Below are positions 6,320 through 49,631 of a stretch of DNA of 64,000 nucleotides, piece by piece. Numbering within the stretch: the stretch's first letter is position 1; every line of letters begins with the position of its first letter. The translations under genes were made by a program, and so were the position numbers. The notes under the pieces were generated by a model. That model was not told the DNA's origin, searched no databases, and saw only the letters and a program-made list of their open reading frames with translations. The stretch lies in assembly GCA_049860595.1 (NCBI GenBank), contig CP187551.1; one strand, given 5' to 3'. Source of the stretch: Methanocaldococcus sp. 16A (GTDB lineage Archaea; AGJL01; Methanococci; Methanococcales; Methanocaldococcaceae).

Positions 6320-6357
6320 TTAAAAATCTTTATAATGCTTTAAATCCGAAAATTTAA
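6320..6357. repeat. Direct duplication of the nrpR 3' end (34/38 identical to 6458-6495)
   Basis: ttaaaaatctttataatgctttaaatccgaaaatttaa vs ttaaaaatccctataaccctttaaatccgaaaatttaa. Confidence 0.9.
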
Positions 6358-6362
6358 GCAAC

Positions 6363-6432
6363 CATAGGGCTTTGCCCTATTGGTATCCCTCTCAATGAGA
6401 AGTATAGCAATTGGAGATGAAACCCCCTATAG
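6363..6432. mobile_element. Palindromic repeat family C element (MJRE-like)
   Basis: Left end CATAGGGCTTTGCCCTATTGGTAT; degenerate right end GTATAGCAAT...CCCCTATAG. Confidence 0.7.
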
Positions 6433-6457
6433 TTACAAATACCCATCAATCTACCGC

Positions 6458-8077
6458 TTAAAAATCCCTATAACCCTTTAAATCCGAAAATTTAACGACT
6501 TCATGCATAGCTCTTAATTCAATTGGAATTTCATTCTCTTTTAATAACACTAATGGATTTATTCCTCCTATTGTTACAACTCCACACATGTCTTTATTTA
6601 CATTAATACCATAAAGCTCATTGTTTGGCTCTCCTATAGTTTTAATACCATTCCAATTTAATCTCTTTAAAACTTCCTCTAATTTCTCTCTTGCAACTCT
6701 ATGCACTTCTCTAAAGCCAGCTAAGAATGTCTTTTCACAATCAACAAAGTTGAAGAAAACTTCATGTGGGTCTAATGATGAACCATCATAACCAATTATA
6801 TCTATAAATCTCTCTTTATCTTCAGTTATTTCCAAAACTCCACCATATCTTGGAATTGTTGGAACTGAGTTTCTTAAAAATATTCCATCCAAGGTTACTG
6901 CACAGACTGTTTGAATTTTTATTTTATTGTTCTCTTCTACTATTCCAAATCTATCAGATATTCCTAATCCCTTTTTGTAAGCTTCTTTTAATAAGTCCAA
7001 TGCCTCATCAAGGTATTTTTTATCAATATATGCAATATTTACAACAACATCTCCATCTCCTTCATCTATATCGTAGGTTACTTTTGCCATTGCATTGAAC
7101 ATTTTTGATAGAGCAGTTTTTATTCTTATATTCGCTTTTTTTGTTATAATATCTCTTGGATTTTTCTTAACTTTGTGTAAAGACTCTAATCTAACAATTG
7201 AAGACATTGGAGATATCTCTACACAATAGTTGTTTTCAACAAATGGAGCTATTGGTGTTAAACCTCCAATTAAAGCTACACCAACTTTATCATCCCCAAC
7301 ATCTAAACCTAAAACATTCTCTGTTCCATAACTGATGATACATTTTAGTTCATCCTTCTCTAATATACTTTTGAACCTTTCCAAAAATTCAACACCAAAA
7401 CATCTAAAGTTTGCTGGTAAATAACCTTCTCCATTCTCTATAATTCCAATAACATCCGTTTCTTTCTTTTCAATGAATGCTCTTAATGGGTCTATTGATG
7501 TGGATTTATATTTTATGATTTCTTTAAATTCTACAGGCTTTCCATCTTCATATTTTACAATTCCCGCACACACATGAAGCGGGAAAATTCCATTCTGCAA
7601 GAGTATATTATCAAAGTTTAGTGAGCAGAGTGTATTTATTTCTACAAATTTTTCTCTATCCATAACTCCAACTCTATCTCCAACGGCCAAACCTGACTCA
7701 TAGACGCTCTTTATTATTTTTAGTGCATCGTTAAAATCCGCATAAACCTGACATCTATTTATAACAACGTATCCAAACCTGTAATTGGCAGATATCGTCT
7801 TCTCAAGTATATTTGAATAGATACTTCCTAATCTATAGGATATATTTGCCTTTTCTAACTCTTCCAAACCTCTCTCAGTTATAACCCTTCCAGCATAACC
7901 AACTTTTTTTGTTAATTTCATACCATCCAATAACTTTAAATGGTATCTAACTGCCCTCTCTCCAATTTTATATCCTCTCTTATTAAGTTCTTTAGCTATA
8001 ATCTTAGCCCCTACTGGTTCTTTTGATTTGGATAAAATATCTAAAATCTCAATTAATTTTCTATCAAGGTCTGCCAT
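6458..8077 (-). CDS. nrpR: Global nitrogen regulator NrpR (wHTH plus two NRD domains)
   Basis: N-terminal wHTH IGERAVRYHL; duplicated NRD motifs (GGLTPIA / GGINPLV); RBS AGGTGA before ATG 8077. Confidence 0.93.
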   Translation of the reverse strand: MADLDRKLIEILDILSKSKEPVGAKIIAKELNKRGYKIGERAVRYHLKLLDGMKLTKKVGYAGRVITERGLEELEKANISYRLGSIYSNILEKTISANYRFGYVVINRCQVYADFNDALKIIKSVYESGLAVGDRVGVMDREKFVEINTLCSLNFDNILLQNGIFPLHVCAGIVKYEDGKPVEFKEIIKYKSTSIDPLRAFIEKKETDVIGIIENGEGYLPANFRCFGVEFLERFKSILEKDELKCIISYGTENVLGLDVGDDKVGVALIGGLTPIAPFVENNYCVEISPMSSIVRLESLHKVKKNPRDIITKKANIRIKTALSKMFNAMAKVTYDIDEGDGDVVVNIAYIDKKYLDEALDLLKEAYKKGLGISDRFGIVEENNKIKIQTVCAVTLDGIFLRNSVPTIPRYGGVLEITEDKERFIDIIGYDGSSLDPHEVFFNFVDCEKTFLAGFREVHRVAREKLEEVLKRLNWNGIKTIGEPNNELYGINVNKDMCGVVTIGGINPLVLLKENEIPIELRAMHEVVKFSDLKGYRDF

Positions 8078-8096
8078 TTTTCTCACCTAAAAAATA

Positions 8097-8212
8097 TAAG
8101 ACTTTCGCAGTTTATATAATTTTAATGAATATTTTAATGAATATATCGAGAATAATATTTTTTATTAGACAGATAATTAATGATGCTATATTTATTCCTG
8201 CAAAACTCCCTA
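8097..8212. mobile_element. MITE-like palindromic repeat family A (degenerate)
   Basis: AGACTTTCGCAGTTTATATA ... TTTATTCCTGCAAAACTCCCTA. Confidence 0.65.
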
Positions 8213-8250
8213 ATATAAAAAATTAAAAAATTTAAAAAAATAACAAACAA

Positions 8251-9657
8251 TTATTTATCTAATCTCTCTTTTAATAACTCAATAACTCTCTTAGGCTCTG
8301 CTCTTCCTCTTGTTAATCTCATTACCTGCCCCATTAAGAAATTTAAAGCCTCTTTTTTACCGCTTAAATAATCTTCAACAGCCTTTGGATTGTTTTTAAT
8401 AGCTTCCTCAACCGCTTTAACTAAAGCGTCTTCATCTTTAATAACAGTCAATCCTAGTTCTTCAACTATCTGTTTTGGCATCTTGCTTCCTCTATTTATA
8501 ACCAACAAATCTACAATCTCTTTAGCTATTTTTTGAGATATAACACCCTCCTTAATTAGTTTTATTAATTCAACTATATGCTCTGCCTTAACTCCACTTT
8601 CATACAAATCTACTTTATGATACTGCAAACTTCTTTTTAACTCATTTCTAATCCAAGTTACGGCTAAATCAACATTCTCTCTATTAACTCCTAAAGATTT
8701 AACAACTTCCTCAAACATCTCAGCCATATCTAAGTCAGAAACTAATACCTTAGCATCTTCCTCATCTATACCATATTCCTCAATAAATCTCTTCTTCTTA
8801 GCTAATGGAGTTTCTGGCATCATTTCCTCAATCTCTTTAACCCACTCCTCAGAAATAACTATTGGCTGAATGTCAGGGTCTGGAATGTATCTATAATCTT
8901 CAGCTGTTTCTTTACTTCTCATTGCTTTGGTTATCATCTGACTCTCTAAGAAAGCCCTTGTCTCTCTTTTAATTTCTCCCCCTCTTTTAATAATGTTTTT
9001 CTGTCTAATTACTTCATACTTTAGAACTTTATAAACCCCTTTAATTGAGTTGACGTTTTTAACCTCAACTCTATTTCCTTGAACGCCCATGTATTCAATA
9101 GAAATGTTTACATCAGCCCTCATTGTTCCTTCTCCTCTTAAACATCCGAGGTATCTAAATAAAGTCATTAATTGCTTTAAAAATTCTCTTGCCTCTTCTG
9201 GGCTTTTTATATCCGGTTTTGTAACAATCTCAATTAGTGGTGTACCACTTCTGTTATAATCAACAATTCCAAAACTTGGGTTGTATTGCCCAGGGTCTTC
9301 TTCTAAGTGAACTTCAGCAATTCCAATACCCATAAACTCTCCATCTACACCGATAGGTGTTGAAGTTCTCTGATAACCGCTTGGTAAATCAGGATAATCA
9401 TAATGTTTTCTTTGGAAGTATATATCTTTATCAACAACTATTTTACATCCAAGCATTTTTGCTACCATTATAGCTACTTCTACTGCCTTTTTGTTTGGTG
9501 GTAGTGGCTTTGCTCCTGGTAATCCCAAACAAACTGGACAAACATTCGTGTTGGGTTCAGCATCTAAATAGTTTGTTGAACAATTACAGAACAATTTTGA
9601 TTTTGTATCAATTTGAACGTGTATCTCCAAACCACACTTCATTTTAACATCGTCCAT
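8251..9657 (-). CDS. gatB: Asp-tRNA(Asn)/Glu-tRNA(Gln) amidotransferase subunit B
   Basis: GLEIHVQI, CPVCLGLPG, YPDLP, HLEEDPG, DYNRSGTPLIEIVT. Confidence 0.97.
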   Translation of the reverse strand: MDDVKMKCGLEIHVQIDTKSKLFCNCSTNYLDAEPNTNVCPVCLGLPGAKPLPPNKKAVEVAIMVAKMLGCKIVVDKDIYFQRKHYDYPDLPSGYQRTSTPIGVDGEFMGIGIAEVHLEEDPGQYNPSFGIVDYNRSGTPLIEIVTKPDIKSPEEAREFLKQLMTLFRYLGCLRGEGTMRADVNISIEYMGVQGNRVEVKNVNSIKGVYKVLKYEVIRQKNIIKRGGEIKRETRAFLESQMITKAMRSKETAEDYRYIPDPDIQPIVISEEWVKEIEEMMPETPLAKKKRFIEEYGIDEEDAKVLVSDLDMAEMFEEVVKSLGVNRENVDLAVTWIRNELKRSLQYHKVDLYESGVKAEHIVELIKLIKEGVISQKIAKEIVDLLVINRGSKMPKQIVEELGLTVIKDEDALVKAVEEAIKNNPKAVEDYLSGKKEALNFLMGQVMRLTRGRAEPKRVIELLKERLDK

Positions 9658-9821
9658 TCCCTTCACCCAAAAAAATTGGTTTTTTTAATTTTAATTAATG
9701 TCTTATTCATCATTAATATAATAATTAATGAACTTTGAACATCCTAGCATCATAAATACCCTTATAACATAAAAATTGTGAATGTGAAAGTCCTATCTAA
9801 TTATCTTATAATTTCAAAAGA

Positions 9822-10340
9822 TTAACTCTTTGGCTTTAAGACCTTTGGACCTCTTGCTAATGCAGTAATCCCAGTTCTTGCCATCTCCTTAATCCCCAAT
9901 GGTTTTACTAATTCAATAAATGCGTTTATCTTATCTTCACTACCTGTTATCTCAACAATTAAAGATTCAGGACTTAAATCTACAACATTTCCTCTAAATA
10001 TACTTGTATATTGAATAACTTGAGATTTAGCACTCTCTGTTGGTGCATATATTTTTATTAGGCAGAGCTCTCTCTGGACAGATTTCTTTTCCTCTAACTC
10101 ACTAACTTTTATAACATCAATTAATTTATTGAGTTGTTTGACAACCTGCTCTAATATCTTATCATCACCATTAACAACTATCGTAACCCTTGAAATTTGT
10201 GGATTCTCAGTTATTCCAACTGTAATACTTGAAATATTAAACCCTCTCCTAGTAAATAATCCTGAAATTCTCTGTAAGACTCCTGGTTTGTTTAAAACTA
10301 ATGCGGAGATAACATGCCTATGTTCCATTATCTTCACCAA
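9822..10340 (-). CDS. ilvN: Acetolactate synthase small (regulatory) subunit
   Basis: ACT domain [26 protein letters not shown]. Confidence 0.96.
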
Positions 10341-10479
10341 TATCTTTTATAGTAAGATTTATAAAATAATAAAATAGATGCTTTATAAGTCTATAGTAGC
10401 TTTACCCTATTTAGTTATATTATGAACTTTCCATTACCTTGTCCTAATGGTCCTTTTTAGTTTTAATATTTAATTTAAA

Positions 10480-10571
10480 TAGGACTTCCGCAGAGATGAG
10501 TATTGAGAGGCATTTCTGATGCCTTTGGCAACATTTTTCCTTATTAAATATTATAAACTACGAAAGTCCTA
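10480..10571. mobile_element. MITE-like repeat family A
   Basis: TAGGACTTCCGCAG...GATGCCTTTGGCA...TATAAACTACGAAAGTCCTA. Confidence 0.8.
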
Positions 10572-10647
10572 TTAACTTTCTGTTTCTTATTTCTTTTGCC
10601 TTAGGGTAAATAGGATTTATTAAAAAAATATATATATAATTTTTGGG

Positions 10648-11922
10648 ATGGTAAACATGGTTTTATTAAAATTTCATGGAGGTTGTCAGCAAATTGGGAT
10701 GAGTTGTGTTGAAGTAGAAACACAGAAAGGAAGAGTATTGTTAGATTGTGGTATGTCCCCAGATAGTGGAGAAATTCCTAAGTTAGATGATAAAGCAATA
10801 GATGCTGTTATCATCTCTCATGCCCATCTTGACCACTGTGGGGCAATTCCATTCTATAAATTTAAAAAGATTTATTGCACACATCCAACAGCTGATTTAA
10901 TGTTTATAACTTGGAGAGATACTTTAAATTTAACAAAAGCTTATAGTGAGGAAGATATTCAGCAGGCAATGGAAAGTCTTGAATGTTTAAATTATTATGA
11001 AGAGAAGATAATTAATGATAATATAAAATTCAAATTCTACAATGCAGGGCATATATTGGGTAGTGCTTCCATATACTTAGAGGTAGAAGGGAAAAAAATT
11101 CTATATACAGGAGATATAAACGAAGGAGTTTCAAGAACTCTACTTCCAGCAGATACAGATATTGATGAGATTGATGTTTTAATTATAGAATCTACCTACG
11201 GCTCTCCATTAGATATAAAGCCAGCAAGGAAAACATTAGAAAAGCAGTTAATTGATGAAATATCTGAAACAATAGAAAACGGAGGAAAAGTAATAATCCC
11301 TGTTTTTGCTATTGGTAGGGCTCAGGAAATTTTGCTAATATTAAACAACTATATGAGAAGTGGGAGGTTAAAAGAAGTGCCTATTTACACAGATGGCTCT
11401 TTAATTCATGCAACTGCCGTTTATCTAAGTTATGTAAATTGGCTAAATCCAAAAATAAAAAATATGGTTGAGAATAGAATTAACCCATTTGGAGATGTAA
11501 AAAAGGCTGATGAGAGCTTAGTGTTTAACAAAGAACCCTGCATTATTGTCTCAACTTCGGGAATGGTCCAAGGAGGTCCTGTATTAAAATATCTAAAATT
11601 ATTAAAAGACCCGAAAAATAAGCTTATATTAACTGGTTATCAGGCAGAGGGAACATTAGGAAGGGAATTAGAGGAAGGAGTTAAAGAAATACAACCATTT
11701 AAAAATAAAATCCCTGTTAGGGGAAAGGTTGTTAAAATAGAGTTTTCAGCTCATGGGGATTACAACTCCTTAGTAAGATATATAAAAAAGATTCCTAAAC
11801 CAGAAAAAGCTATAGTTATGCATGGGGAGAGGTATCAATCACTATCATTTGCAATGACTATCTGGAAAACTTTAAAAATTCCCACATATGTTCCAGTTAA
11901 GGGAACCATACTACCAATATAA
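10648..11922 (+). CDS. MBL-fold beta-CASP ribonuclease (CPSF-like, no KH domains)
   Basis: SHAHLDHCG, AGHILGS, YTGD, ESTYG, FSAH, MHGE. Confidence 0.92.
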   Translation: MVNMVLLKFHGGCQQIGMSCVEVETQKGRVLLDCGMSPDSGEIPKLDDKAIDAVIISHAHLDHCGAIPFYKFKKIYCTHPTADLMFITWRDTLNLTKAYSEEDIQQAMESLECLNYYEEKIINDNIKFKFYNAGHILGSASIYLEVEGKKILYTGDINEGVSRTLLPADTDIDEIDVLIIESTYGSPLDIKPARKTLEKQLIDEISETIENGGKVIIPVFAIGRAQEILLILNNYMRSGRLKEVPIYTDGSLIHATAVYLSYVNWLNPKIKNMVENRINPFGDVKKADESLVFNKEPCIIVSTSGMVQGGPVLKYLKLLKDPKNKLILTGYQAEGTLGRELEEGVKEIQPFKNKIPVRGKVVKIEFSAHGDYNSLVRYIKKIPKPEKAIVMHGERYQSLSFAMTIWKTLKIPTYVPVKGTILPI

Positions 11923-11929
11923 AATTTAA

Positions 11930-11948
11930 TAGGACTTTCGCAGTTTAT
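11930..11948. repeat. Solo end of family A repeat
   Basis: TAGGACTTTCGCAGTTTAT with no partner end. Confidence 0.7.
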
Positions 11949-12620: not shown

Positions 12621-13811
12621 TTACTCAATATTAATTGATATCCTTGATGTATATTTGGAAAGATACTTTTTTATAACATTATCGATTTCAAATTTAACAA
12701 TTGATGGGTCTACATCTTTTTTAATAATCCCCAAAATTTTTTTCCTTTTTACATTAACATCTCCAAATATAAAGTATCTTCCATTTTCCCATTTAACATT
12801 TATATCTGGCTTAACATCATCAACACCATCAATATTTTTTAGTTTTTCAATTATTTCTTTTTCTATTTTTTTCTTTAAGTCTTGTAGTTCCTCATCACTG
12901 GGTTTAACAAAATCTTCTAATATTGCTTCTATCCAATTCTCATCAGGATCTTTTAATCCTAATTTTTTTAGTAGTTCTTCTCTTGATAATTCAGCTTCTT
13001 CCTCTTCAACTTTGCCTAAACTACTATCAGTTTCAGATATAGAAACACTATCCTGTTCCATCTTTCTATCTATTTCTTTTTTGATTTCTTTCTTTTCATC
13101 TTCAATCTTCATCTCAGGATACATATCTAATAAAACATTTAACTTCTTTTCATCATATTCATAAACATCAATAACCGTATTTTCATCAATTAACATCTGC
13201 TTTATCTTTTTATATGCATCTTTCCCAAGTAAAACCCCATGATTGCACTCATAAGCCGCTGCTATAGGAGTTTTTCCATTATATATAATATAACCGTTTT
13301 CGAACATTCCTGATATTTTTCTATATGCATTTATAATAATATATTTGTTATCATTTAGATATGCCTCAAAATCCTTCACATTCATTTCAACAGGAACACC
13401 CAATGGAACATTCAATTTTATGTTTAGATATTTTTCCTCAGCAATATCTTCTACTTTCTTTTCTTCTTTATCTTCTCTTTTTTTAGTTTTCTTTATTATA
13501 AATATTTCTGGATATAACCATTTCATTAGATTTAACTTATCTTTATCATATCTATAAAGTTCTATAACCTTATTTTCATGATTTAATAATTCAAGAACTT
13601 TTTCAGCATTTCCACAAATATCCTCTGAGTTATTATCAGTATAGAAGTATCCAACAATTTCCCCATTTTCAACAAATATATAACCTTCATGTAGTTTATT
13701 ATCGTGTTTAACTAAAATGAGAATATAGCCCGTTCCTAACTCTTTTATAATATCGTCAAGTTTTCCATCAGTTAATGTCTTTATTAATTCTCCCTCAATA
13801 ACTTTTATCAT
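12621..13811 (-). CDS. DUF2226 family protein with tandem PATAN/DUF4388-like repeats
   Basis: Two internal repeats ([12 protein letters not shown]...[19 protein letters not shown] / [13 protein letters not shown]...[19 protein letters not shown]); [14 protein letters not shown] motif. Confidence 0.75.
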
Positions 13812-13896: not shown

Positions 13897-14667
13897 TTAT
13901 CTATATATCTTTTTAGCTATTAATCCTGCAAAAACCCCTGCTCCAAATCCGTTATCAATATTTACAACTGCTATGCCTGGAGAGCATGTATGTAACATTG
14001 TCAGCAGAGGAGTTATTTTTATCCCATAAGATGTTGATGTCGGCACTCCAATAACTGGAATATCAACCATAGACGCTACTACTGAAGGTAGGGCTCCTTC
14101 CATTCCAGCAACAACAATAACACAACAAACGTCTTCTTCAATCATTCTTTTTAGGGCTGGAAACAACCTATGAATACCTGCAATTCCTACATCATAGAAT
14201 GTTATAGCTTCAACTCCCATAACTTCCAAAGTATCTTTCGCCTCCTCCGCTATTGGAATATCTGAAGTTCCTGCCGTTAATATACCCACTTTGCCTATTT
14301 TTTTAATTTCATAATTTTTATTTTTTATTATTAATGTTTTAGCTTTTTTATTAATTTTTATATGATAGTTTTTTAAATCATACTTTCTAATTTCGTCACT
14401 AAGTTTTTCTATATCCTCTATTTTAGTCGCTAAAGCAATGCCATTTTTTTCTGCAAGTTTTAATGTAGCTCTAATTATTTCTTCTATATCTTTTCCTTTA
14501 CCATAAACAACTTCTGGAACTCCAGTTCTGAACTGCCTATTAACATCCAATTTCAATTTATCCTCAATCTCCTCAAAATAATTAAGTTTTATGATTTTTT
14601 CCATTTCTTCTAAGCTAATTTCTCCATTTTTAAATGCCAAAAGTAAATCTTTTAGACTCTTTCCCAT
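13897..14667 (-). CDS. larB: LarB / AIR-carboxylase-like NPN cofactor biosynthesis protein
   Basis: RTGVPEVVYGKGK, AGTSDIP, DVGIAGIHRL, VAGMEGALPS, NIDNGFGA; start moved to ATG 14667 because the upstream extension lies in a repeat. Confidence 0.9.
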   Translation of the reverse strand: MGKSLKDLLLAFKNGEISLEEMEKIIKLNYFEEIEDKLKLDVNRQFRTGVPEVVYGKGKDIEEIIRATLKLAEKNGIALATKIEDIEKLSDEIRKYDLKNYHIKINKKAKTLIIKNKNYEIKKIGKVGILTAGTSDIPIAEEAKDTLEVMGVEAITFYDVGIAGIHRLFPALKRMIEEDVCCVIVVAGMEGALPSVVASMVDIPVIGVPTSTSYGIKITPLLTMLHTCSPGIAVVNIDNGFGAGVFAGLIAKKIYR

Positions 14668-14705
14668 CCAATTCCCCTCCAATCTTTTAGAAAAAAGCAT
14701 TATTT

Positions 14706-14801
14706 TAGGACTTTTGCAAGAATAAATATATTTTATTATGAATATAGACACCTAAAGGTGTCAAAGTTCCAAAACTAATATTATAAACTGCGAAAATCCT
14801 A
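14706..14801. mobile_element. MITE-like repeat family A
   Basis: TAGGACTTTTGCA...GACACCTAAAGGTGTC...TATAAACTGCGAAAATCCTA. Confidence 0.85.
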
Positions 14802-14803
14802 TA

Positions 14804-15571
14804 TTAAACTCTTTCCCATTCAATTCCATTATTTTCAAAAAATTCAATATATTTTCTTCTATCCTCTCCCCTACACCCTTTCCAATCAATAAGAACCTTA
14901 TCTACTTCCATCTTATTGATTAGTTGATTTAAAACTTCTTCAGAAACTGAAGCATATTTTGGAACTAAGTAGCCAAAATAATATCTATCTTCTAAAGCAA
15001 GTTTTGTAAATTTTGGAGCATAATGTCCTCCACCAAAGCCAATAGCTCTAAATTTTTTATCATAATTTTTAGATTTTATTGCATCAATAGCTTCTAACAC
15101 AGATTTAGCTATAATTTCTCCAGCTTCTTTTAAAACCCATTCCTTTTCACTACTACCAATTTCAACAAACACCGTTGGAGCATTTAAATCAGTTGGTGAA
15201 TGATGAACTACCTCAAAAGAGACATCAAATTCTTTAATCTTGCCATTTTCATAATAGGTTTTGTAATTTTTGTAAATATTTTTCAATAAAAGAGTGTTTA
15301 ATATTGCATCACATGGACAGATTTCTTTAGGATTACCTCCAAAATCATTATTTTCTGTTAAATTTCCTGGTGTATGAACTGTTAGAGATGGTTTATTAGC
15401 TTTACTTCTATGTTTTGATAAAAATATATAATAATCTGCTTTCTCTAAATCTTCCTGAGTTATTGATAAAAGTTCTTTATCAACTTCAAAAATATCAAAA
15501 TATTCTCTTAAATTATTTGCAATGTTTTTACTTGCCAAATCTTTATTTGATGATATTAACAAAAATTTCAT
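14804..15571 (-). CDS. dtdA: D-aminoacyl-tRNA deacylase (archaeal DTD2)
   Basis: SKHRS, LTVHTPGN, EVVHHSPT, FVEIGS, GFGGGHYAP. Confidence 0.92.
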   Translation of the reverse strand: MKFLLISSNKDLASKNIANNLREYFDIFEVDKELLSITQEDLEKADYYIFLSKHRSKANKPSLTVHTPGNLTENNDFGGNPKEICPCDAILNTLLLKNIYKNYKTYYENGKIKEFDVSFEVVHHSPTDLNAPTVFVEIGSSEKEWVLKEAGEIIAKSVLEAIDAIKSKNYDKKFRAIGFGGGHYAPKFTKLALEDRYYFGYLVPKYASVSEEVLNQLINKMEVDKVLIDWKGCRGEDRRKYIEFFENNGIEWERV

Positions 15572-26264: not shown

Positions 26265-26990
26265 ATGGGAAAAAGATTAATCTCTCAAAGAAGAGGTAGG
26301 GGAACCCCAACCTACACCTGCCCTTCACACAAAAGAAGGGGAGAGGCAAAATACAGAAGATTTGATGAATTAGAGAAAAAAGGAAAAGTTTTAGGTAAAA
26401 TTGTTGATATCTTACACGACCCAGGAAGAAGTGCTCCAGTAGCAAAAGTTGAATACGAAACAGGAGAAGAAGGATTGTTGGTTGTTCCAGAAGGTTTAAA
26501 AGTTGGAGATGTCATTGAGTGTGGTGTTGCTGCTGAAATAAAACCAGGAAATATCTTACCATTGGGAGCTATTCCAGAAGGGATTCCTGTCTTCAACATA
26601 GAAACAGTTCCAGGAGATGGAGGAAAATTAGTTAGAGCTGGAGGTTGCTATGCTCACATATTAACACACGATGGAGACAGAACTTATGTAAAATTACCTT
26701 CTGGACACATTAAAGCTTTACACTCAATGTGTAGAGCTACAATAGGAGTTGTTGCTGGTGGAGGTAGAAAAGAGAAGCCATTCGTTAAGGCTGGTAAGAA
26801 GTATCACGCTATGAAAGCTAAAGCTATTAAGTGGCCAAGAGTTAGAGGAGTTGCAATGAACGCTGTTGACCACCCATTCGGTGGAGGTAGGCATCAACAC
26901 ACTGGTAAACCAACAACTGTTTCAAGAAGAATGCCACCAGGAAGAAAGGTTGGACATATTGCTGCAAGAAGAACTGGAGTCAGAAAATAA
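26265..26990 (+). CDS. rpl2: 50S ribosomal protein uL2
   Basis: MGKRLISQRRG, HDPGRSAP, WPRVRGVAMNAVDHPFGGG. Confidence 0.98.
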   Translation: MGKRLISQRRGRGTPTYTCPSHKRRGEAKYRRFDELEKKGKVLGKIVDILHDPGRSAPVAKVEYETGEEGLLVVPEGLKVGDVIECGVAAEIKPGNILPLGAIPEGIPVFNIETVPGDGGKLVRAGGCYAHILTHDGDRTYVKLPSGHIKALHSMCRATIGVVAGGGRKEKPFVKAGKKYHAMKAKAIKWPRVRGVAMNAVDHPFGGGRHQHTGKPTTVSRRMPPGRKVGHIAARRTGVRK

Positions 26991-35943: not shown

Positions 35944-36014
35944 CGTCTTTCGCATTTTATATATTGATAGAGCATCTATATTCCTTATAAACATTTATTC
36001 CTGCGAAAGTTCCA
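35944..36014. mobile_element. MITE-like repeat family A (degenerate)
   Basis: CTTTCGCATTTTATATA...TTTATTCCTGCGAAAGT. Confidence 0.7.
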
Positions 36015-36042: not shown

Positions 36043-36216
36043 TTGAAATTAACAAAATTTGAGATTGCAAGAATATTGGGGGCGAGAAGTTTGCAGATAT
36101 CAAATGGGGCTTATGCAACAATAGAAACAAAATGTGATACCTCATTAAAAATAGCATATGAAGAAATTAAACAAGGAAAAGTTCCATTAAAGCCGATAAG
36201 ACCTGTGAAGGCATAA
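36043..36216 (+). CDS. rpoK: RNA polymerase subunit K (Rpo6), 57 aa, not in the ORF track
   Basis: TTG start after GGGGTGA; MKLTKFEIARILGARSLQISNGAYATIETKCDTSLKIAYEEIKQGKVPLKPIRPVKA. Confidence 0.95.
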   Translation: MKLTKFEIARILGARSLQISNGAYATIETKCDTSLKIAYEEIKQGKVPLKPIRPVKA

Positions 36217-36265
36217 ACTGTTTTAACTAAAAAGTGGAGTTAAAGTTGTGAAAACATGCTGTGTA

Positions 36266-36293
36266 GTATAGCAATAGAAGCTTTGCTTCTATG
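36266..36293. mobile_element. Family C terminal hairpin
   Basis: GTATAGCAATAGAAGCTTTGCTTCTATG. Confidence 0.7.
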
Positions 36294-36327
36294 CCATTAA
36301 AACCGATAAGACCTGTAAAAGCATAAA
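36294..36327. repeat. Direct duplication of the rpoK 3' end (31/34 identical to 36184-36217)
   Basis: ccattaaaaccgataagacctgtaaaagcataaa vs ccattaaagccgataagacctgtgaaggcataaa. Confidence 0.92.
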
Positions 36328-38592: not shown

Positions 38593-39471
38593 ATGAAACT
38601 AAAGCCAGAATGTGCTATATGTATAATAAGGCAGGTTGTTGATGCTGTCAATGAAATAACCGCTGATGAGAAAGAGCAATTTAGATTAATAAAAAGTACT
38701 ATGGAAGTTATTAAAGATGTTTATGGTGAGAGTGCAGTTCCAGCATGGATGGGAACTATAGTTCATAGATATTTAAAGAAAATTAGCAATAACAACGACC
38801 CTTATAAAAATTTAAAAGATAAAGCAAACAAAATAGCTTTGCAGTATTTAGATAAAGTTAGAGAGATGAGTAATATAGAAGATGAAATTGAGAGATTGAG
38901 AAAGAAGGTTTTAGCAACAATAGCAGGGAATGTTATTGACTTTGGGGCTTACAGCACAGGGATAAATATTGAAAAGTTAATTGAAGATACATTAAATGGG
39001 AAGTTAAAGATAGATGATAGCAAAGAGCTTTTAAATGATTTAAAAGATAAAAACATAAAAAAGATTTTATATATATGTGATAACGCTGGAGAGATTATTT
39101 TTGATAGGGTTTTAATAGAAGAGATTAAAAAATATGATAAAAATATCGTTGCAGTAGTTAAAGGAAAACCGATTCTAAATGATGCTACATTGGAGGATGC
39201 AAAAATAGCAAAGATTGATGAGATAGCTAAGGTAATAACAACAGGCTCAGATATTATAGGAATTATTTTAGAAGAGTGTTCAGAAGAATTTTTAAAAGAG
39301 TTTGAAAGTGCTGATTTAATTATAGCAAAAGGAATGGGCAATTATGAAAGTTTAACAGAATATGAGGATAGGATAGATAAGCCAGTTTATTATATATTGA
39401 AGGCAAAATGTAAGCCAGTTGCTGAGAACATTGGTGTTGATGTAGGAGATAATGTTTTGTTAAAAAGGTAA
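38593..39471 (+). CDS. DUF89 / ARMT1-like damage-control phosphatase
   Basis: ECAIC, GNVIDFG, DNAGE, ILNDAT, KGMGNYE, KAKC. Confidence 0.92.
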   Translation: MKLKPECAICIIRQVVDAVNEITADEKEQFRLIKSTMEVIKDVYGESAVPAWMGTIVHRYLKKISNNNDPYKNLKDKANKIALQYLDKVREMSNIEDEIERLRKKVLATIAGNVIDFGAYSTGINIEKLIEDTLNGKLKIDDSKELLNDLKDKNIKKILYICDNAGEIIFDRVLIEEIKKYDKNIVAVVKGKPILNDATLEDAKIAKIDEIAKVITTGSDIIGIILEECSEEFLKEFESADLIIAKGMGNYESLTEYEDRIDKPVYYILKAKCKPVAENIGVDVGDNVLLKR

Positions 39472-44701: not shown

Positions 44702-46366
44702 ATGAAAGTGGGGAAATATGTTTTACTACTTGCATTAACTTTACTATTTGCTGGAGGAGTATGGGGAGAGCAGGTAGAGAATGGGTTGGTAGCATACTAT
44801 AGTTTTGATAATATTAACGGAAATATATTAGTAGATGATAGTGGAAATGGTCACAATGGAGTAATATACGGTAATCCAAAAGTCGTTGAAGGTGTTAAGG
44901 GTAATGCATTAGAATTTGATGGACAAAGTTATGTTCATCTTGGAGATACATTAACAGGAAAAGTTTGGGATGCTGTAACAGTTTCAGCAGTTATAAAACC
45001 AGAAGAGCAAAGTAATAATGACTTTTCTGAGATCTTTTATGATGGAAGTGATGGAGAATTTGCACTTAGTCTTAGAGAAAATACAGTTTCCTTTAATGTA
45101 AAACTTGAAGATAAAAAATGGTGGAAAGTTTCAGCAAGTCTTCCCGAACTAAATAGATGGTACCATGTTGTAGGGACCTATTCAAAAGATGAAGGAGTTA
45201 TAAAGCTGTACATAAATGGAATTTTAGTTAATAAAACAAAAATACCATACGAACTTTTATTTGATCCTGTAACATATTATGGAGGTAAATATAATCCAAC
45301 TATAGGTGCATACTGTGATGGGGGAGGTTCAACCAATCATAAATATAAAGGAGCTATAGATGAACTTAGAATTTATAACAGAGTCTTAAGTGATGACGAA
45401 ATTAAAAAACTTGCTGAAGACGTAGGATTACTGACTACCTCTATATATTCAATATATAATAAACCTAATAATAATGAAAATGAAAATAATATAACTAATG
45501 AGTTTAATCAAGTAAATACTCAGCAGGAAGAAAATACAACTAACAATGTAGAAATTAATATAAAAGAATCAGAAGTTGAAGGACTGTCTGTAATAAATAT
45601 AGATTCAGAACCGACAGGAGCGGAGATTTACATAAATGGGAAATATTATGGAAAAACACCAGCTAAAATAGAATTAGAACCTGATACATATCAAATTGAG
45701 GTTTATAAAGAAGGATATAAATTATATACATACACTCTAACTACAGAATCAAATAAAGAGTATGTATTACACATAACATTAGAAAAAGAACAAACTAAAC
45801 AGCAAGATCCAACATTTGGAGGTAAGTTCATAGAACCTCCAACTGTTGTATTACACATGGTAAAAGATAAAATAAAACCAGGAGAGCAGGGAATAATTGA
45901 ATTAACTATCCAAAATCCAGATGTTAATAGTATAGCATTAGAGGGAGATTTAATAGTAAAAGTACCTTCAAATCTTGCAGTAGAGGGAGGTAATGTAATA
46001 GGTGGTGGAGGATACTACACTACAAAATTCATAGCAAAACCCGGAGTTTCAAAAACACTAACACTCTACATAACGTGTTTAGATGATAACCCAGGAAAAT
46101 ATTTAGTTTATGGAAAAGTATATTACTACCCTGAAGGAGACAAAGAAAATTACCGAGAGGTAACATTTACCAAACCTATAGAAATAATAGGTGTTGAAAA
46201 AGAAGAACAACCAAAAGAAACTATTACACAACAACAAACTGAAAATAAAGAAAGTTTAGTAAGTATATTCTATAAAAATCCAGAATACTTAATAATAATT
46301 ATAGGAATAATCGTCTTTGGTATCGTAGGAATTGCCTTCGCTATAGCTTTCGCTATAAGAAAATAA
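44702..46366 (+). CDS. Secreted, C-terminally anchored LamG-like + PEGA + Ig-like surface protein
   Basis: Signal peptide; GLVAYYSFD..DDSGNG, WYHVVGTY, IDELRIYNRVLS (LamG); DSEPTGAEIYING..GKTP (PEGA); C-terminal TM helix plus RK. Confidence 0.88.
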   Translation: MKVGKYVLLLALTLLFAGGVWGEQVENGLVAYYSFDNINGNILVDDSGNGHNGVIYGNPKVVEGVKGNALEFDGQSYVHLGDTLTGKVWDAVTVSAVIKPEEQSNNDFSEIFYDGSDGEFALSLRENTVSFNVKLEDKKWWKVSASLPELNRWYHVVGTYSKDEGVIKLYINGILVNKTKIPYELLFDPVTYYGGKYNPTIGAYCDGGGSTNHKYKGAIDELRIYNRVLSDDEIKKLAEDVGLLTTSIYSIYNKPNNNENENNITNEFNQVNTQQEENTTNNVEINIKESEVEGLSVINIDSEPTGAEIYINGKYYGKTPAKIELEPDTYQIEVYKEGYKLYTYTLTTESNKEYVLHITLEKEQTKQQDPTFGGKFIEPPTVVLHMVKDKIKPGEQGIIELTIQNPDVNSIALEGDLIVKVPSNLAVEGGNVIGGGGYYTTKFIAKPGVSKTLTLYITCLDDNPGKYLVYGKVYYYPEGDKENYREVTFTKPIEIIGVEKEEQPKETITQQQTENKESLVSIFYKNPEYLIIIIGIIVFGIVGIAFAIAFAIRK

Positions 46367-46377
46367 ATAATATTTTA

Positions 46378-47160
46378 TTATAACTCCTCTAAACTCAAAT
46401 TTTTCAATCTTTCAGCAATGTAATCAATCATCTCCTTTAAATTCTTCATATTGTCAAAACCATCAATGATTTTTAAAAGTTCTTCCTCATCTTTATTTTT
46501 AAATTCTCTAACATATTTGATTAATAGAGGTAGAGCTCTTGTTAATTCATCAACTATTGTTATAGTGGATTTTCTTGCAGTTCTTGATAATGGATTTAAA
46601 TCAATAGCTATGACCTTTTTTCCCATATTAACTAAAGCTTCTGCTCTATCTCCATCTTCTAATGGAACTAAAACAACATCCGCACTAAATATTCCTTCTT
46701 CTGAAACCTTTCCCCTTAAACTATCCAAGTTTGGAATTCTTTTATTGGCATCATCAATACCCAAAATTTTTATCTTTCCTGTCTCTATATCCTCTCTAAA
46801 TTTCTCTTCAAATTCTTTTTTTATAGCCAACTCTCTCTCTTTAGTTCTATAAAATAAATTAACCTCTATCTTTCCATTCAGCTCTTTTGCAAGCTCAACA
46901 ACTTCATCTATTGCTAAAGCTACTGTGTTTCCATTAACACTTATTACTGGATTTTCAGCTAAAACTAATAAAGCAGAAGCAGCTTTTATTGCCTCCAATG
47001 CTATTGGTGTTGTTTTTTCCCCAATTAAATAGTCAAATGTCTCTCCTCTACCATGAGCTATTAGCCCAGCTTTAGCTAAAATCCCTTTATCTAATGCTTC
47101 AATAACTTTTTCTCTCTTCATTAAAGATTCATACCTTGGATGAGTTTTTGGAATCTCCAT
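46378..47160 (-). CDS. pps: 4-phosphopantoate--beta-alanine ligase
   Basis: [41 protein letters not shown]. Confidence 0.94.
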
Positions 47161-47235
47161 TAGGTATCACCAAGTTTTTATATGGTTGTTTGTAATAAAA
47201 CTTTTTGTATATAAGATAATATTTAAGGTGGTAAA

Positions 47236-48333
47236 ATGAAACTACATGAATATGAGGCAAAGAAAATATTTAAAGAGTATGGAATACCTGTTCCAGAAAG
47301 TTTTTTAATAAATAAAGGAGATGATTTAAACAGCATAAATGTTGATAAAGAAGTTGTTTTAAAAGCTCAGGTTTTAGTTGGTGGAAGAGGAAAAGCAGGA
47401 GGGATTTTATTCGCATCAAACAAAGAAGAATTTATAAAAAAGGCTGAAGAATTGTTTAACAAAGAAATTAAAGGAGAAAAAGTAGAAAAAATTTTAGTTG
47501 AAGAAAAATTACCAATAGAGAAAGAATACTATATATCAATTATTATTGATAGAGATGCTAAAAAACCGTTAGTTATTTTCTCAACTAAAGGAGGAGTAGA
47601 TATTGAAGAAGTTGCAGAAAGAGAGCCAGAAAAGATTATAAAGTATCACATTGATGTTAAAAAACCTTTCCTACCATATATAGCGAGATGGATAGTTAAA
47701 GATGCTAAGTTACCAAGTAATGAGATAGGAAAGGTTGCTGATGTAATTTATAAATTATACAAAATCTTTAAAGATTTAGATGCAACAATGGTTGAAATAA
47801 ATCCTTTAGTTATAACTAAGGATGGAAATGTCTATGCCGCTGATGCTGTCCTTCATTTAGATGATGATGCAGCATTTAGACATAATTATGAGATATTTGA
47901 AGAATATAAAAACAAAGAAAAATTGCCATTTGCGTATGTTGAATTAGATGGAGATGTAGCTGTTATAGGTAATGGGGCTGGTTTAACATTAGCAAGTATG
48001 GATGTAATTAACAACCTCGGCAGAAAACCAGCTTGCTTCTTAGACATTGGTGGAGGAGCTGATACTGAAACAGTAAAATTAGCTTTAAGAAAAGTTTTAG
48101 AGAATAAAAATGTTAAAGGTATATTTATCAATATCTTAGGAGGAATTACAAGATGTGATGAAGTTGCCAAGGGAATAGTTGAGGTTTTAAAAGAACATCC
48201 AAACGTAAAGTTTGCTGTTAGAATGATGGGAACTAATGAGGAAATCGGTAGAAAAATTTTAGAAGAACATGGAATTCCTTATGAAACATCAATGGAAGAG
48301 GCTGGAAAAAAATTAATCGAATCATTAAGTTAA
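47236..48333 (+). CDS. sucC: Succinyl-CoA synthetase beta subunit
   Basis: MKLHEYEAK, KAQVLVGGRGKAGG, GNGAGL, GGITRCD. Confidence 0.96.
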   Translation: MKLHEYEAKKIFKEYGIPVPESFLINKGDDLNSINVDKEVVLKAQVLVGGRGKAGGILFASNKEEFIKKAEELFNKEIKGEKVEKILVEEKLPIEKEYYISIIIDRDAKKPLVIFSTKGGVDIEEVAEREPEKIIKYHIDVKKPFLPYIARWIVKDAKLPSNEIGKVADVIYKLYKIFKDLDATMVEINPLVITKDGNVYAADAVLHLDDDAAFRHNYEIFEEYKNKEKLPFAYVELDGDVAVIGNGAGLTLASMDVINNLGRKPACFLDIGGGADTETVKLALRKVLENKNVKGIFINILGGITRCDEVAKGIVEVLKEHPNVKFAVRMMGTNEEIGRKILEEHGIPYETSMEEAGKKLIESLS

Positions 48334-48338
48334 TTTAA

Positions 48339-48412
48339 TATGACTTTCGCAGTTTATGTATTTAATAAGGTATTTATGATGCCTTATTATATTTATTCCT
48401 ACGAAAGTCCTA
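48339..48412. mobile_element. MITE-like repeat family A (short)
   Basis: TATGACTTTCGCAGTTTAT...TTTATTCCTACGAAAGTCCTA. Confidence 0.82.
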
Positions 48413-48472
48413 TAATAAGCTAATAAACTAAAGAGCAATATTTAATTTTTTTAATTAATTTTTGGTGAAATA

Positions 48473-49408
48473 ATGATATTAGTTACTGGAGGAGCAGGTT
48501 TTATTGGTAGCCATATTGTAGATAAGCTCATTGAAAATAATTATGATGTAACTATTTTAGACAATTTAACTACAGGAAATAAAAATAATATAAATCCAAT
48601 GGCAGAGTTTGTAAATGCAGATATTAGGGATAAAGATTTAGATGAAAAGATTAATTTTAAAGATGTCGAAGTTGTTATTCATCAAGCAGCTCAGATAAAT
48701 GTTAGAAGCTCTGTTGAAAATCCAATATATGATGGAGATATCAACATTTTAGGGACAATAAATATCTTAGAGTTTATGAGAAAGTATGACATAAATAAAA
48801 TTATATTTTCATCATCTGGAGGAGCGGTTTATGGAGAACCAAACTATCTCCCAGTAGATGAAAATCATCCAATAAACCCACTATCCCCTTATGGACTAAG
48901 CAAATATGTTGGAGAGGAATATATAAAGCTATATAATCGCCTCTATGGGATTGAATATGCAATTTTAAGATACTCAAATGTTTTTGGTGAGAGGCAGGAC
49001 CCAAAAGGAGAGGCTGGAGTTATAAGCATATTTATTGACAAGATGTTAAAAAATCAAAACCCAATTATTTTTGGAGATGGTAACCAAACAAGAGATTTTG
49101 TCTATGTTGGAGATGTTGCAAAAGCAAATATTATGGCACTAAATTGGAAAAATGAAATTGTTAATATAGGAACTGGAAATGAGACATCAGTAAATGAATT
49201 ATTTAATATAATAAAAAATGAAATTGGGTTTAAAGGAAATGCAATATATGATAAACCAAGAGAAGGAGAGGTTTATAGAATTTATTTAAATATAGATAAA
49301 GCAAAGTCATTAGGTTGGGAGCCAGAGGTTGATTTGAAAGAAGGGATAAAGAGAGTTGTTAATTGGATGAAAAACTATAAAGGGAAACACTTTTATTCCA
49401 AAATTTAA
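48473..49408 (+). CDS. galE: UDP-glucose 4-epimerase-like extended SDR
   Basis: TGGAGFIG, YGLSK, GDGNQTRDFVYV. Confidence 0.88.
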   Translation: MILVTGGAGFIGSHIVDKLIENNYDVTILDNLTTGNKNNINPMAEFVNADIRDKDLDEKINFKDVEVVIHQAAQINVRSSVENPIYDGDINILGTINILEFMRKYDINKIIFSSSGGAVYGEPNYLPVDENHPINPLSPYGLSKYVGEEYIKLYNRLYGIEYAILRYSNVFGERQDPKGEAGVISIFIDKMLKNQNPIIFGDGNQTRDFVYVGDVAKANIMALNWKNEIVNIGTGNETSVNELFNIIKNEIGFKGNAIYDKPREGEVYRIYLNIDKAKSLGWEPEVDLKEGIKRVVNWMKNYKGKHFYSKI

Positions 49409-49449
49409 TATAGCATATCCAATAATTTTGATGAACCTTTTTCTAAAAG

Positions 49450-49544
49450 CATAGAGGGAAACCCTCTATTGCTATACTCCCTAACACCTCTGCCTTTGGC
49501 AGAGGTGTAAATTTTGGGTATACCAATAGGGCGAAGCCCTATGG
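49450..49544. mobile_element. Complete family C element with 9-bp target duplication (TTCTAAAAG at 49441-49449 and 49545-49553)
   Basis: CATAGAGGGAAACCCTCTATTGCTATAC...ACACCTCTGCCTTTGGCAGAGGTGT...GTATACCAATAGGGCGAAGCCCTATGG. Confidence 0.88.
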
Positions 49545-49631
49545 TTCTAAAAGTTTCGATGAAAAATATAAATAGGTAATGGAGTTAATTTTATATGCAT
49601 TTATACAACAGATATCAGATAGGTTGAGAGT

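Follow-up and report, generated by a model that had tools for sequence, protein, structure and literature searches.

At three places in a 64 000-nucleotide stretch of the Methanocaldococcus sp. 16A genome (contig CP187551.1; the whole stretch is referred to here as the window), a hairpin stands beside a direct copy of sequence lying on its other side. This raises the question of whether such copies arise with the insertion of the hairpins and, if so, what kind of process could leave them. A preliminary description of the window had reported the three loci with adjacent copies of 38, 34 and 9 bp; the loci and the two shorter lengths were borne out by our study, and the longest repeat has to be corrected to ~43 bp. 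All three loci were found to be copies of one mosaic family of small GC-rich hairpin modules, each flanked by a direct target duplication. The modules are labelled H1, M2, M3, M4, F and B-core, which are names coined in the present analysis, and the related genomes used for comparison are designated by G numbers.

Gene-end loci in the window

Locus 1 lies at the end of the minus-strand NrpR gene (ORF 6458..8086, with PF01995 and PF08461 matches). The working 3' end of this gene forms the second copy of the duplication (6458..6499, minus strand; stop codon 6458-6460), and a relic, unused copy of its last ~13 codons and stop was delimited at 6320..6361 (minus strand) by repeat alignment and comparison with relatives. 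Between the two lie an H1 hairpin end (6362..6388, minus strand; CCATAGGGC-TTT-GCCCTATTGGTATCC), the outer end of which touches the relic copy, a second, degenerate H1-type hairpin in inverted orientation (6402..6432, plus strand), and a 25-bp insert tail that runs from the degenerate hairpin to the working gene end (6433..6457) and differs in G005, G007 and G013. The repeat spans ~43 bp with one indel, its ungapped 38-bp part scoring 26, and comparison with relatives indicated that it abuts the hairpin directly. The locus is empty, with a single target copy, in G001, G012, G006, G010, G008 and G016, and filled in four genomes; the relatives with the most similar flanks are without the element, G001 being empty and G014 carrying another insert.

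Locus 2 lies at the end of the RpoK gene (ORF 36043..36216, PF01192). The working Rpb6/RpoK 3' end plus one nucleotide forms the first copy (36184..36217, plus strand; stop codon 36214-36216), and is followed by an inner insert (36218..36265, plus strand) that consists of an A/T-rich tail (36218-36233) and module M4 (36234-36265) and is conserved in G014, G005, G012 and G002. Next come an H1 hairpin end (36266..36293, plus strand; GTATAGCAAT-AGAAGC-TTT-GCTTCTATG) and, abutting it with zero gap, the relic copy of the RpoK 3' end (36294..36327, plus strand), identified by repeat alignment and from relatives. The repeat is 34 bp long with 31 identical positions, and comprises the last 10 codons of RpoK, the stop and one nucleotide. 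Working and relic copies differ at three positions, all of them synonymous (3/3), and the codon variants of the relic are the working alleles in G013, G007 and G005. The site is single-copy, and therefore empty, in G001, G013, G010, G011, G006 and G016, and filled in five genomes.

Locus 3 holds nested insertions at the end of an epimerase gene (PF01370), which now reads through to a stop at 49406-49408. The outer, older insertion (49384-49557) lies between the two copies of an ~18-bp repeat made from the epimerase 3' end, the first at 49366..49383 (plus strand) and the second, a relic, at 49558..49576 (plus strand), which matches the single copy of the short alleles in relatives. This older insert begins with a tail and the left half of an F hairpin module (49384..49440) and ends with the remaining F hairpin arm (49554..49557). 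In the loop and arm of the F hairpin sits a 95-bp 'type B' element (49450..49544, plus strand), which has an H1 hairpin at each end and a further hairpin in its centre and shares 94-99% identity with copies in G006, G011 and G014. It is flanked by a 9-bp target duplication, of which copy 1 (TTCTAAAAG, 49441..49449) lies within the F hairpin and copy 2 at 49545..49553. The whole outer segment is missing in G001, G002, G006 and G011, and an uninterrupted F-like hairpin is found at this locus in G012, G005, G013 and G007.

The preliminary description had cautioned that at the two longer repeats the first copy does not abut the far end of the element. This was correct, and the sequence between them proved to be part of the insert, being either an A/T-rich tail or one more module that is conserved in relatives.

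Hairpin modules across the genus

The elements are non-coding and span 48-371 bp, and our analysis supports the view that they are non-autonomous. The stems of their hairpins vary with compensating changes, and terminal inverted repeats are present in the two-ended copies (locus 3; chromosome position 627690; G001_L222) and absent from the common M3+H1, M4+H1 and F+B-core forms. An H1 12-mer was present in 15 of 17 Methanocaldococcus genomes, with a maximum of 33 per genome, against 0-1 for the backwards control; by this count, the extragenic DNA of the genus contains GC-rich palindromes in multiple copies, as is characteristic of MJRE. The hairpin modules therefore probably correspond to MJRE, the palindromic repeats named from Methanocaldococcus.

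MJRE1-3 were reportedly described by Suyama, Lathe and Bork in FEBS Lett in 2005 as palindromic repetitive elements of Methanocaldococcus jannaschii, and are said to be short GC-rich palindromes, extragenic, of several groups and sometimes fused into coding regions. The modules studied here are likewise GC-rich palindromes of several groups in the extragenic DNA of Methanocaldococcus, with occasional coding fusion, as genes run into elements at chromosome position 824473 of this genome, at G014 38081 and at locus 3 of the window. The 2005 paper is not known to mention flanking duplications, and the other literature searched contained no description of those reported here. PMC2229807 cites the MJRE paper of Suyama, Lathe and Bork (2005).

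A search of Rfam gave no family match to the window elements, the only match being a sub-threshold one in a 339-bp insert of G014. A hairpin-pattern search of public genome contigs gave, among the matches listed, mostly chance matches in unrelated bacteria, and a search of sequencing runs gave three metagenome contig sets only, containing 5-8% of the sampled words, with no RNA set listed. The preliminary description had tied the flanking repeats to a single hairpin type, its 'family C'. This holds at the window loci, but not exclusively, as elements made only of other hairpin modules, at positions 13445, 42375, 65360, 688618 and 877788 of the chromosome of this genome (contig C1), have repeats too. 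An unrelated inverted-repeat element in the window (14676-14803) also has a flanking repeat.

Flanking repeats and empty sites

Flanking repeats were enriched over controls, as would be expected from the preliminary description. A repeat score of at least 20 was found at 9 of the 20 family loci in this genome, compared with a 95th percentile of 11 and a 99th of 24 for 3000 random placements, and an adjacent repeat with a score of at least 18 was found at 42 of 120 hairpin ends in seven genomes, compared with 15 of 1319 in a swapped-flank control. An unbiased scan for split duplications with a structured middle identified 29 in this genome and 33 in G014. Nine split duplications were opened, and hairpin modules lay inside all but the intragenic repeats (three, with unstructured middles).

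The empty orthologous sites anticipated in the preliminary description were also found. Exactly one target copy was present in the empty allele at 12 element loci, in a comparison of this genome with the ~95% identical G014, and the same was true of the three window loci when other species were compared. Sites 11532, 13445, 1064444 and 23405 were filled in this genome and empty in G014, and sites 26635, 36056, 38948, 650362, 664775, 716073, 1494736 and 1508141 were filled in G014 and empty here. Because the empty allele carries one copy only, the duplication arises with the insertion, and these sequence comparisons support the interpretation of the flanking repeats as insertion-linked target duplications of very variable length.

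Across 50 clusters, the repeats had a median length of 30.5 bp (interquartile range 26-41, minimum 16, maximum 67), and the commonest class was 30-34 bp (14 clusters). Two further duplications are shorter, one of 9 bp (locus 3) and one of 8 bp (position 1397426 on the chromosome of this genome), giving an overall range of 8-67 bp. The earlier argument that the repeats do not fit the fixed-length duplication of a DDE transposase was upheld by this range, and the sole multi-copy insertion sequence of this genome, of IS6/IS240 type (PF13610), has an 8-bp duplication and other ends. In most cases the repeats begin 0-1 nt beyond the hairpin end; at the opposite end of the element, tails of differing lengths (4-30 nt) precede the same module. 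A truncated insert of ~44 bp still has a full 36-bp repeat, and two-ended hairpin elements have repeats of 9, 18, 21 and 25 bp. Inspected by eye, the hairpin junctions of the cases listed showed no microhomology.

The duplicated stretch mostly corresponds to the terminal codons of a gene (with the stop, or with the ribosome site and start) or to a tRNA 3' end, and the working gene copy adjoins the A/T-rich end of the element; non-genic targets, such as the F hairpin and the repeats of CRISPR arrays, are duplicated too. On its inner side the duplication mostly stops exactly at the stop codon, in part as judged by eye. This is far too frequent for random staggered cuts, and it does not follow even from the best explanation considered below. 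A steeply falling length distribution combined with selection was considered as the source of this boundary and rejected, long repeats being the majority class. Copy-to-copy differences over 50 pairs fell at codon positions 1, 2 and 3 in 31, 29 and 93 cases, and the third-position share (93/153, 61%) exceeds the ~47% that we estimate for a duplication whose relic copy then decays neutrally. This excess implies that recombination must also act.

Candidate enzymes

The HUH enzymes named as possible drivers in the preliminary description are unlikely to be responsible, as Y1_Tnp (PF01797) had no matches in this genome and is present in 3 and absent in 14 of the 17 genus genomes. The reverse transcriptase domain RVT_1 (PF00078) gave no matches in this genome, which was the only one searched for it. 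DDE_Tnp_1 (PF01609), which we take to cover IS4/IS1634-type transposases, had no matches here or in G002, G006, G007 and G010, and these genomes carry 13-33 hairpin 12-mers. A larger, autonomous element flanked by hairpins and a duplication, for which a search had been suggested, was not found in the sampled DNA of seven genomes; hairpin pairs 7.5-7.7 kb apart in G001 and G006 have no flanking repeat in common, and hairpin modules were not found at TnpB gene ends. A three-copy family of 338-aa proteins, with hairpins upstream of two copies, was considered and rejected, being an archaeal ATPase (PF01637) and not a transposase.

The perfect-repeat insertions at G014 26635 and 38081 had no near-identical donor in the same genome, the best matches being 80-97% over single modules. 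Cas1 was found in this genome and in 15 of the 17 genus genomes, and the Cas1-less G009 and G015 have 0 and 1 hairpin 12-mers; in G004, two Cas1 genes go with no hairpin 12-mer at all, and in G003 Cas1 goes with just two. Among the known types of transposon in this genome, none accounts for the duplications.

Discussion

The explanation that we favour, and to which we give roughly even chances of being right, is that these are non-autonomous mosaic hairpin elements inserted with a variable target duplication through polar, two-step joining by a non-classical enzyme supplied in trans. Insertion would consist of two uncoupled strand-joining steps, and the enzyme would not be of the classical DDE, Y1/HUH or reverse-transcriptase type. 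The precise hairpin end (..CTATG/G) would be joined to one target strand and the variable, A/T-rich-tailed end to the opposite strand, 8-67 bp off, after which gap filling would give the target duplication. The route put forward in the preliminary description, in which copying is primed at a nick or at the target and the position on the second strand varies, may be involved. Since terminal codons or a tRNA 3' end are usually duplicated, the gene stays whole on one side, with an unused copy on the other. The copies may later be blurred by exchange of the working copy with the alleles of other lineages and by gene conversion between them. At F hairpin targets (1064444, 1508141 and locus 3), conversion driven by homology could produce an identical pattern with no insertion enzyme involved, and the patchy distribution of filled sites fits loss via the repeats or allele transfer equally as well as insertion.

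The copies could alternatively be two alleles, left as a recombination scar where donor DNA replaced a gene end homologously on one side and was joined illegitimately at a break-prone hairpin on the other, so that the gene end of the recipient was retained behind the hairpin. The third-position bias points in this direction, as do the solely synonymous differences at locus 2, the recurrence of its relic variants as working alleles of relatives, the patchy filling (the similar-flank G001 is empty at loci 1 and 2 and G014 has a different insert at locus 1, whereas more distant genomes are filled at both) and the loss of similarity at the stop codon, where the alleles of different lineages are no longer alignable. 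We nevertheless regard a scar as unlikely, as some repeats (43, 27, 26 and 20 bp) are perfect and break off abruptly at a boundary of this same type, and as the copies at G014 1494736 share two variants relative to the empty allele here, which would call for a near-identical donor and recipient, in which case the spacer should match too. A scar also leaves unaccounted for the first arrival of an element behind the donor stop codon and the duplication of targets outside genes. Template switching during replication or break repair (FoSTeS/MMBIR-like), in which a strand leaves the target, copies a hairpin cluster and returns upstream, would require no dedicated enzyme and seems to us improbable to a similar degree. 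Insert boundaries and tails that vary on one side, modules in mosaics, truncated inserts with full repeats, the negative transposase searches, the want of an identical donor for the two insertions tested and the placing of some insertions at module homology (1064444, 1508141) are all consistent with it. However, the inserts stop precisely at the stem base at dozens of independent loci, the hairpin junctions listed are free of visible microhomology, the lengths peak at ~30 instead of being biased towards short values, and every structured split duplication that was opened contained a family module and not random filler, the three unstructured ones being intragenic.

Off-target integration by Cas1-Cas2, with hairpin DNA taken as an over-long 'spacer' and a repeat length (30-37 bp here) duplicated, is in our judgement rather improbable. 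Off-target integration of this 'neo-CRISPR' kind produces a target duplication of ~30 bp around the insert, which resembles the commonest length class here, and CRISPR repeats are 30 bp in this genome and 32 and 37 bp in relatives. Furthermore, arrays of two repeat families in G006 and G014 end with an H1 hairpin element at the exact position of the oldest spacer, between repeats, and the distribution of Cas1 agrees in part, including the near absence of 12-mers from the Cas1-less genomes. On the other hand, the inserts (48-371 bp) are much longer than spacers (~33-45 bp), duplications of 8-67 bp do not look as if set by a ruler, in arrays the copies occupy the trailer end and not the leader, the arrays of this genome contain no such element, and G004 and G003 combine Cas1 with few or no 12-mers. 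The least credible reading, to which we attach very little probability, is an ordinary MITE of a known insertion sequence, whose target duplication would be short and fixed, with the long repeats being due to chance or to old tandem repeats. Some copies do have terminal inverted hairpins and short repeats, of 9 bp (locus 3) and 8 bp (1397426), but the enrichment over controls, the single-copy empty alleles at the 12 loci of this genome or G014 and at the three window loci, the varied repeats of the two-ended elements and the lack of any insertion sequence with these ends in our searches oppose it, and filled/empty pairs with repeats of 21-49 bp refute it.

To our knowledge, prokaryotic mobile DNA very rarely shows target duplications that are both long and variable in length, and we know of no mechanistic model for those of IS1634/IS1549. 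PMC2266710 describes long direct repeats of variable length in IS1634/IS1549. The elements studied here likewise have long, variable direct repeats; IS1634/IS1549 are autonomous with a large DDE transposase, whereas these inserts are gene-less and PF01609 is absent from this genome and from four other hairpin-rich genomes. REP/BIME and IS200/IS605 elements insert into single-stranded DNA without target duplication. They resemble the present family in the conserved bases beside compensating stems, the mosaics and the hairpin at or near the element end, but differ in that duplications are the rule here and Y1_Tnp is missing from most genomes of the genus. As in tyrosine integrase elements, the 3' end of a gene or tRNA is doubled with the working copy on one side; however, those elements carry both the copy and an integrase and use one target, whereas gene-less inserts of ~50-370 bp occupy dozens of targets here. 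Target-primed reverse transcription of the LINE/SINE-like kind shares the variable duplication and the pairing of one constant with one truncated end, but no reverse transcriptase was found in this genome.

In summary, one genus offers independent events by the dozen, for which close genomes provide both the filled and the empty allele, which makes the question open to experiment. The stop-codon boundary and the third-position bias point to a link between insertion, translation boundaries and allele exchange. It is doubtful, in our estimate, that in hyperthermophilic methanogens hairpin DNA inserts without a transposase of a known class, perhaps through the CRISPR integrase or host replication and repair enzymes, with the copying of about one CRISPR-repeat length (~30 bp) at the edges of translated regions; if such a route were real, its repeat-insert-repeat units could seed new CRISPR arrays. 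For genome annotation, genes with new C-termini or 5' leaders and short reading frames that are mere relics are to be expected. With the duplication, an element can land where gene signals overlap and neither gene is killed, and this may explain how the repeats have spread in a packed genome.

Hairpin modules and duplicated gene ends in the window

Two convergent genes enclose locus 1: a PLP-enzyme-like gene that ends at 6276 and the NrpR gene (6458..8086, minus strand, PF01995 and PF08461, stop codon 6458-6460). The NrpR 3' end is copied at 6320-6361, and this copy is followed by an H1 hairpin (6362-6388; the 'family C' hairpin of the preliminary description), by a degenerate second hairpin (6402-6432) with a 25-bp tail and, directly after that tail, by the working NrpR end (6458-6499), that is, the copy still part of the gene, the other being a relic. 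Locus 2 follows directly after the Rpb6/RpoK gene (36043..36216, PF01192). Here the final 34 bp of RpoK (36184-36217) recur at 36294-36327, as had been described, on the other side of a 76-bp insert whose terminal H1 hairpin (36266-36293) abuts the second copy; all three differences between the copies are synonymous. Locus 3, after an NAD-dependent epimerase gene (48473..49408, PF01370), holds a 95-bp element (49450-49544) with an H1 hairpin at either end and TTCTAAAAG on both flanks, which bears out the 9-bp duplication.

The 95-bp element shares 94-99% identity with copies in three other genomes of the genus (G006, G011 and G014), and the genes flanking it share 78-85% identity in G006 and G011 and 96-97% in G014. 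Its near-identity across genomes would reflect either recent interspecies spread or strong constraint. At the orthologue of window 6277-6457 (L005/L018), G014 lacks the hairpin element and carries instead 613 bp of inserted DNA that include an open frame, and its NrpR 3' end is closer to the G006 and G010 versions than to that of this genome; this comparison indicates a gene end swapped between lineages.

H1 takes the form GTATA(G/C)CAAT, then ATAG-stem-loop-stem-CTATG, and is one among several GC-rich hairpin modules that are combined in many ways. M3+H1 is the common short form (approximately 66-70 bp), and further forms include M4+H1, F+B-core and long clusters. The stems of H1 vary among copies yet still pair (GGGC/GCCC, AGGG/CCCT, AAGC/GCTT). 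This genome has 20 exact copies of the H1 12-mer, the other 16 genomes in the genus have 0-33 each, and the reversed pattern, used as a control, was found 0-1 times. A 339-bp insert in G014 (G014:C1:36056-36492; L139:16056-16500), with a 49-bp target duplication, is an H1 hairpin whose loop carries approximately 250 bp that are GC-rich and fold strongly; an Rfam search with this insert found no family (best E 0.73), and the loop could be a structured RNA carried by the element. An archaeal ATPase of 338 aa (PF01637, with an MJ1010-like C-terminal domain) occurs as three paralogues (G000:C1:165388-166480, 662473-663589 and 1524312-1525331), and hairpin elements also lie 40-80 bp before the start codon of two of them.

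Filled and empty alleles

Twelve element loci differ between this genome and G014, its approximately 95% identical relative, one genome having repeat-insert-repeat and the other a single copy without insert, with flanks 94-98% identical. Four are filled in this genome, at 11532 (repeat of 30 bp ungapped, approximately 36 with an indel), 13445 (45 bp), 23405 (approximately 24 bp) and 1064444 (21 bp), and eight in G014, at 26635 (26 bp, perfect), 36056 (49 bp), 38948 (24 bp), 650362 (39 bp), 664775 (32 bp), 716073 (27 bp), 1494736 (43 bp, perfect) and 1508141 (24 bp). A thirteenth single-copy pair (G014 669925) was rejected as a tRNA gene duplication. G014 38081 has a perfect 27-bp repeat, and its insert is absent from this genome.

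The window loci show the same pattern. Locus 1 is single copy in G001, G012, G006, G010, G008 and G016 and filled in this genome, G005, G007 and G013, with identical boundaries in three of these four; locus 2 is single copy in G001, G013, G010, G011, G006 and G016 and filled in this genome, G014, G002, G005 and G012. Locus 3 is a nested insertion: G001, G002, G006 and G011 are without the entire 49384-49557 and have one epimerase-end copy, an F-like hairpin is uninterrupted in G012, G005, G013 and G007, and in this genome the H1 element sits within that hairpin. The empty orthologous sites suggested as a check thus exist, with a single copy, both at the twelve loci and at the window loci, and, judged from the aligned alleles, the duplication arises together with the insertion.

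Enrichment, length and geometry of the duplications

With matches scored +1 and mismatches -2, a flanking direct repeat reached a score of at least 20 at 9 of 20 family loci in this genome; 3000 random placements gave a 95th percentile of 11 and a 99th of 24. We also collected 120 oriented H1 ends from seven genomes (this one, the whole G014 main contig, and G001, G002, G005, G006 and G007 sampled as ±1.2 kb around H1 12-mer matches), leaving out those that lacked a clear stem or lay too near the edge of a stretch. At 42/120, a repeat with a score of 18 or more began no more than 10 nt from the hairpin end, against 15/1319 when flanks were exchanged among loci, counts that pool related, non-independent genomes and use whole sequence for two only. 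Flanking repeats, proposed earlier for comparison with controls, are therefore enriched.

A hairpin-blind scan for non-periodic direct repeats spaced 30-400 bp apart returned 29 with a strongly folding middle in this genome and 33 in G014; among nine inspected, five had family modules, one had a different inverted-repeat element and three were unstructured intragenic repeats. Some lack any H1 (chromosome 13445, 42375, 65360, 558257 and 688618 in this genome). In the window, a 24-bp direct repeat (14652-14675 and 14804-14827) surrounds a 128-bp middle of a different inverted-repeat family, whose inverted ends are of the TATAGGACTTTCGCAG... type. A TnpB-like gene at G000:C1:452389 also has this end motif downstream, and a putative match lies near window 35990-36010.

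Merging look-alike repeats left 50 clusters, at least three of them tRNA gene duplications and not element insertions. Ungapped repeat lengths, which are lower bounds, ranged from 16 to 67 bp (median 30.5, interquartile range 26-41; 14/50 in the 30-34 class), and inserts from 48 to 371 bp (median 93.5). Together with duplications of 8 bp (chromosome 1397426, this genome) and 9 bp (locus 3), this range upholds the variable length originally claimed. The repeat usually starts 0-1 nt past ..CTATG(G), and the opposite insert end has an A/T-rich tail of varying length (4-30 nt) ahead of the same module. Typically, the duplicated stretch covers either a gene's final codons with the stop, or the first codons together with the start and ribosome site, or the 3' end of a tRNA, gene ends having been inferred from open frames. 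The working copy usually adjoins the tail and the relic the H1 outer end, as seen by eye in seven of eight one-ended inserts; automated classes for 44 ends placed the working copy on the inner side in 14, the H1 side in 5, both in 7 and neither in 18. This orientation may come from selection, as ribosomes could be impeded by a highly stable hairpin placed directly at a start or stop codon.

Automated calls for 3'-end cases had the repeat ending at the stop codon, with an offset of -2 to +1 nt, in 6/13, the remaining offsets being -7, +5, -14, +3, -27, -21 (by eye, an artefact of ungapped alignment) and -11. Offsets set by eye were 0 at locus 1, +1 at locus 2, 0 at chromosome 688618 of this genome and, in G014, 0 at 1494736, +1 at 36056 and 0 at 38948. 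Where the boundary lies ahead of the stop, the reading frame of the gene runs on into the insert (chromosome 824473 of this genome, locus 3 and G014 38081, whose TAG stop is provided by the hairpin end).

Differences between the two copies

Across fifty repeat pairs in which one side bears a long open frame, differences numbered 31, 29 and 93 at codon positions 1, 2 and 3, with 74 synonymous versus 60 non-synonymous codon differences; the automatic frame assignment is certain to be wrong in some pairs, and such errors can only weaken the third-position bias. The position-3 share was 61%, compared to a rough expectation of approximately 47% for duplication followed by neutral relic decay. At locus 1 the copies within a genome resemble each other more than same-type copies of other genomes, and a codon variant is common to the relic copies of different genomes at locus 2, so that gene conversion and allele exchange both seem to act.

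Candidate enzymes and mechanism

A MITE with a fixed duplication was excluded. Nor do the duplications match the fixed target-site duplication of a known IS family, as lengths vary and the six copies of an IS6/IS240-type element in this genome (PF13610) have unrelated ends and 8-bp duplications. The preliminary description had suggested looking for an HUH/Y1 or reverse-transcriptase gene that tracks the repeat; Y1_Tnp and RVT_1 are both missing from this genome, Y1_Tnp occurring in 3 of 17 genus genomes. DDE_Tnp_1 was likewise not found here; it occurs in 7/17, several hairpin-rich genomes falling outside those seven. No hairpin modules were found at the three solitary TnpB-like genes of this genome. 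G014 has 23 DDE_Tnp_1 matches versus none in this genome, at approximately 95% identity in shared regions, a comparison that indicates IS expansion in one of two close relatives.

Integration by Cas1-Cas2 would match the commonest length class and the copies within CRISPR arrays, but neither the insert sizes nor the length spread would fit it. In G006 and G014, some arrays have at their trailer end an H1-ended element placed precisely between two CRISPR repeats; arrays with such an element in the last spacer position belong to two different repeat families, and one CRISPR locus consists of a leader and then nothing but repeat-element-repeat. Array loci with a terminal hairpin element were seen in G006 (L274, L276, L269, L272, L271, L264, L275 and L266) and G014:C1 (minus-strand match), and the six arrays of this genome hold no hairpin element. 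Cas1 is present in 15/17 genomes, including the hairpin-free G004, and missing from two hairpin-poor ones. Template switching accounts for the variable insert side and the mosaics, but exact hairpin ends do not match it, and a recombination scar, which accounts for the codon bias and patchy distribution, does not match perfect repeats arising within a single lineage.

No relevant account of target duplications at Methanocaldococcus repeats came up in the literature within reach of our search, which did not extend to the MJRE paper itself, cited in PMC2229807. PMC2266710 gives a range of 8-514 bp for the repeats that IS1549 and IS1634 produce and offers no model for them. Candidates for the activity come from the two small contigs, C2 and C3, which encode an MCM helicase, two tyrosine integrases and a PolB-exonuclease-like protein and also give a weak PrimPol-like match. 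One of these contigs, of 13 kb (G000:C3, L335), contains a 6.5-kb unit twice, with 1049-aa and 426-aa frames, the latter weakly PrimPol-like, and could represent a 6.5-kb plasmid that was assembled in dimeric form.

The boundary at the stop codon falls outside what our favoured reading explains. Because each alternative is excluded, lacks its enzyme here or fits in part, we favour a polar, two-step insertion, which would be carried out by a putative trans-acting activity and would be followed by recombination.
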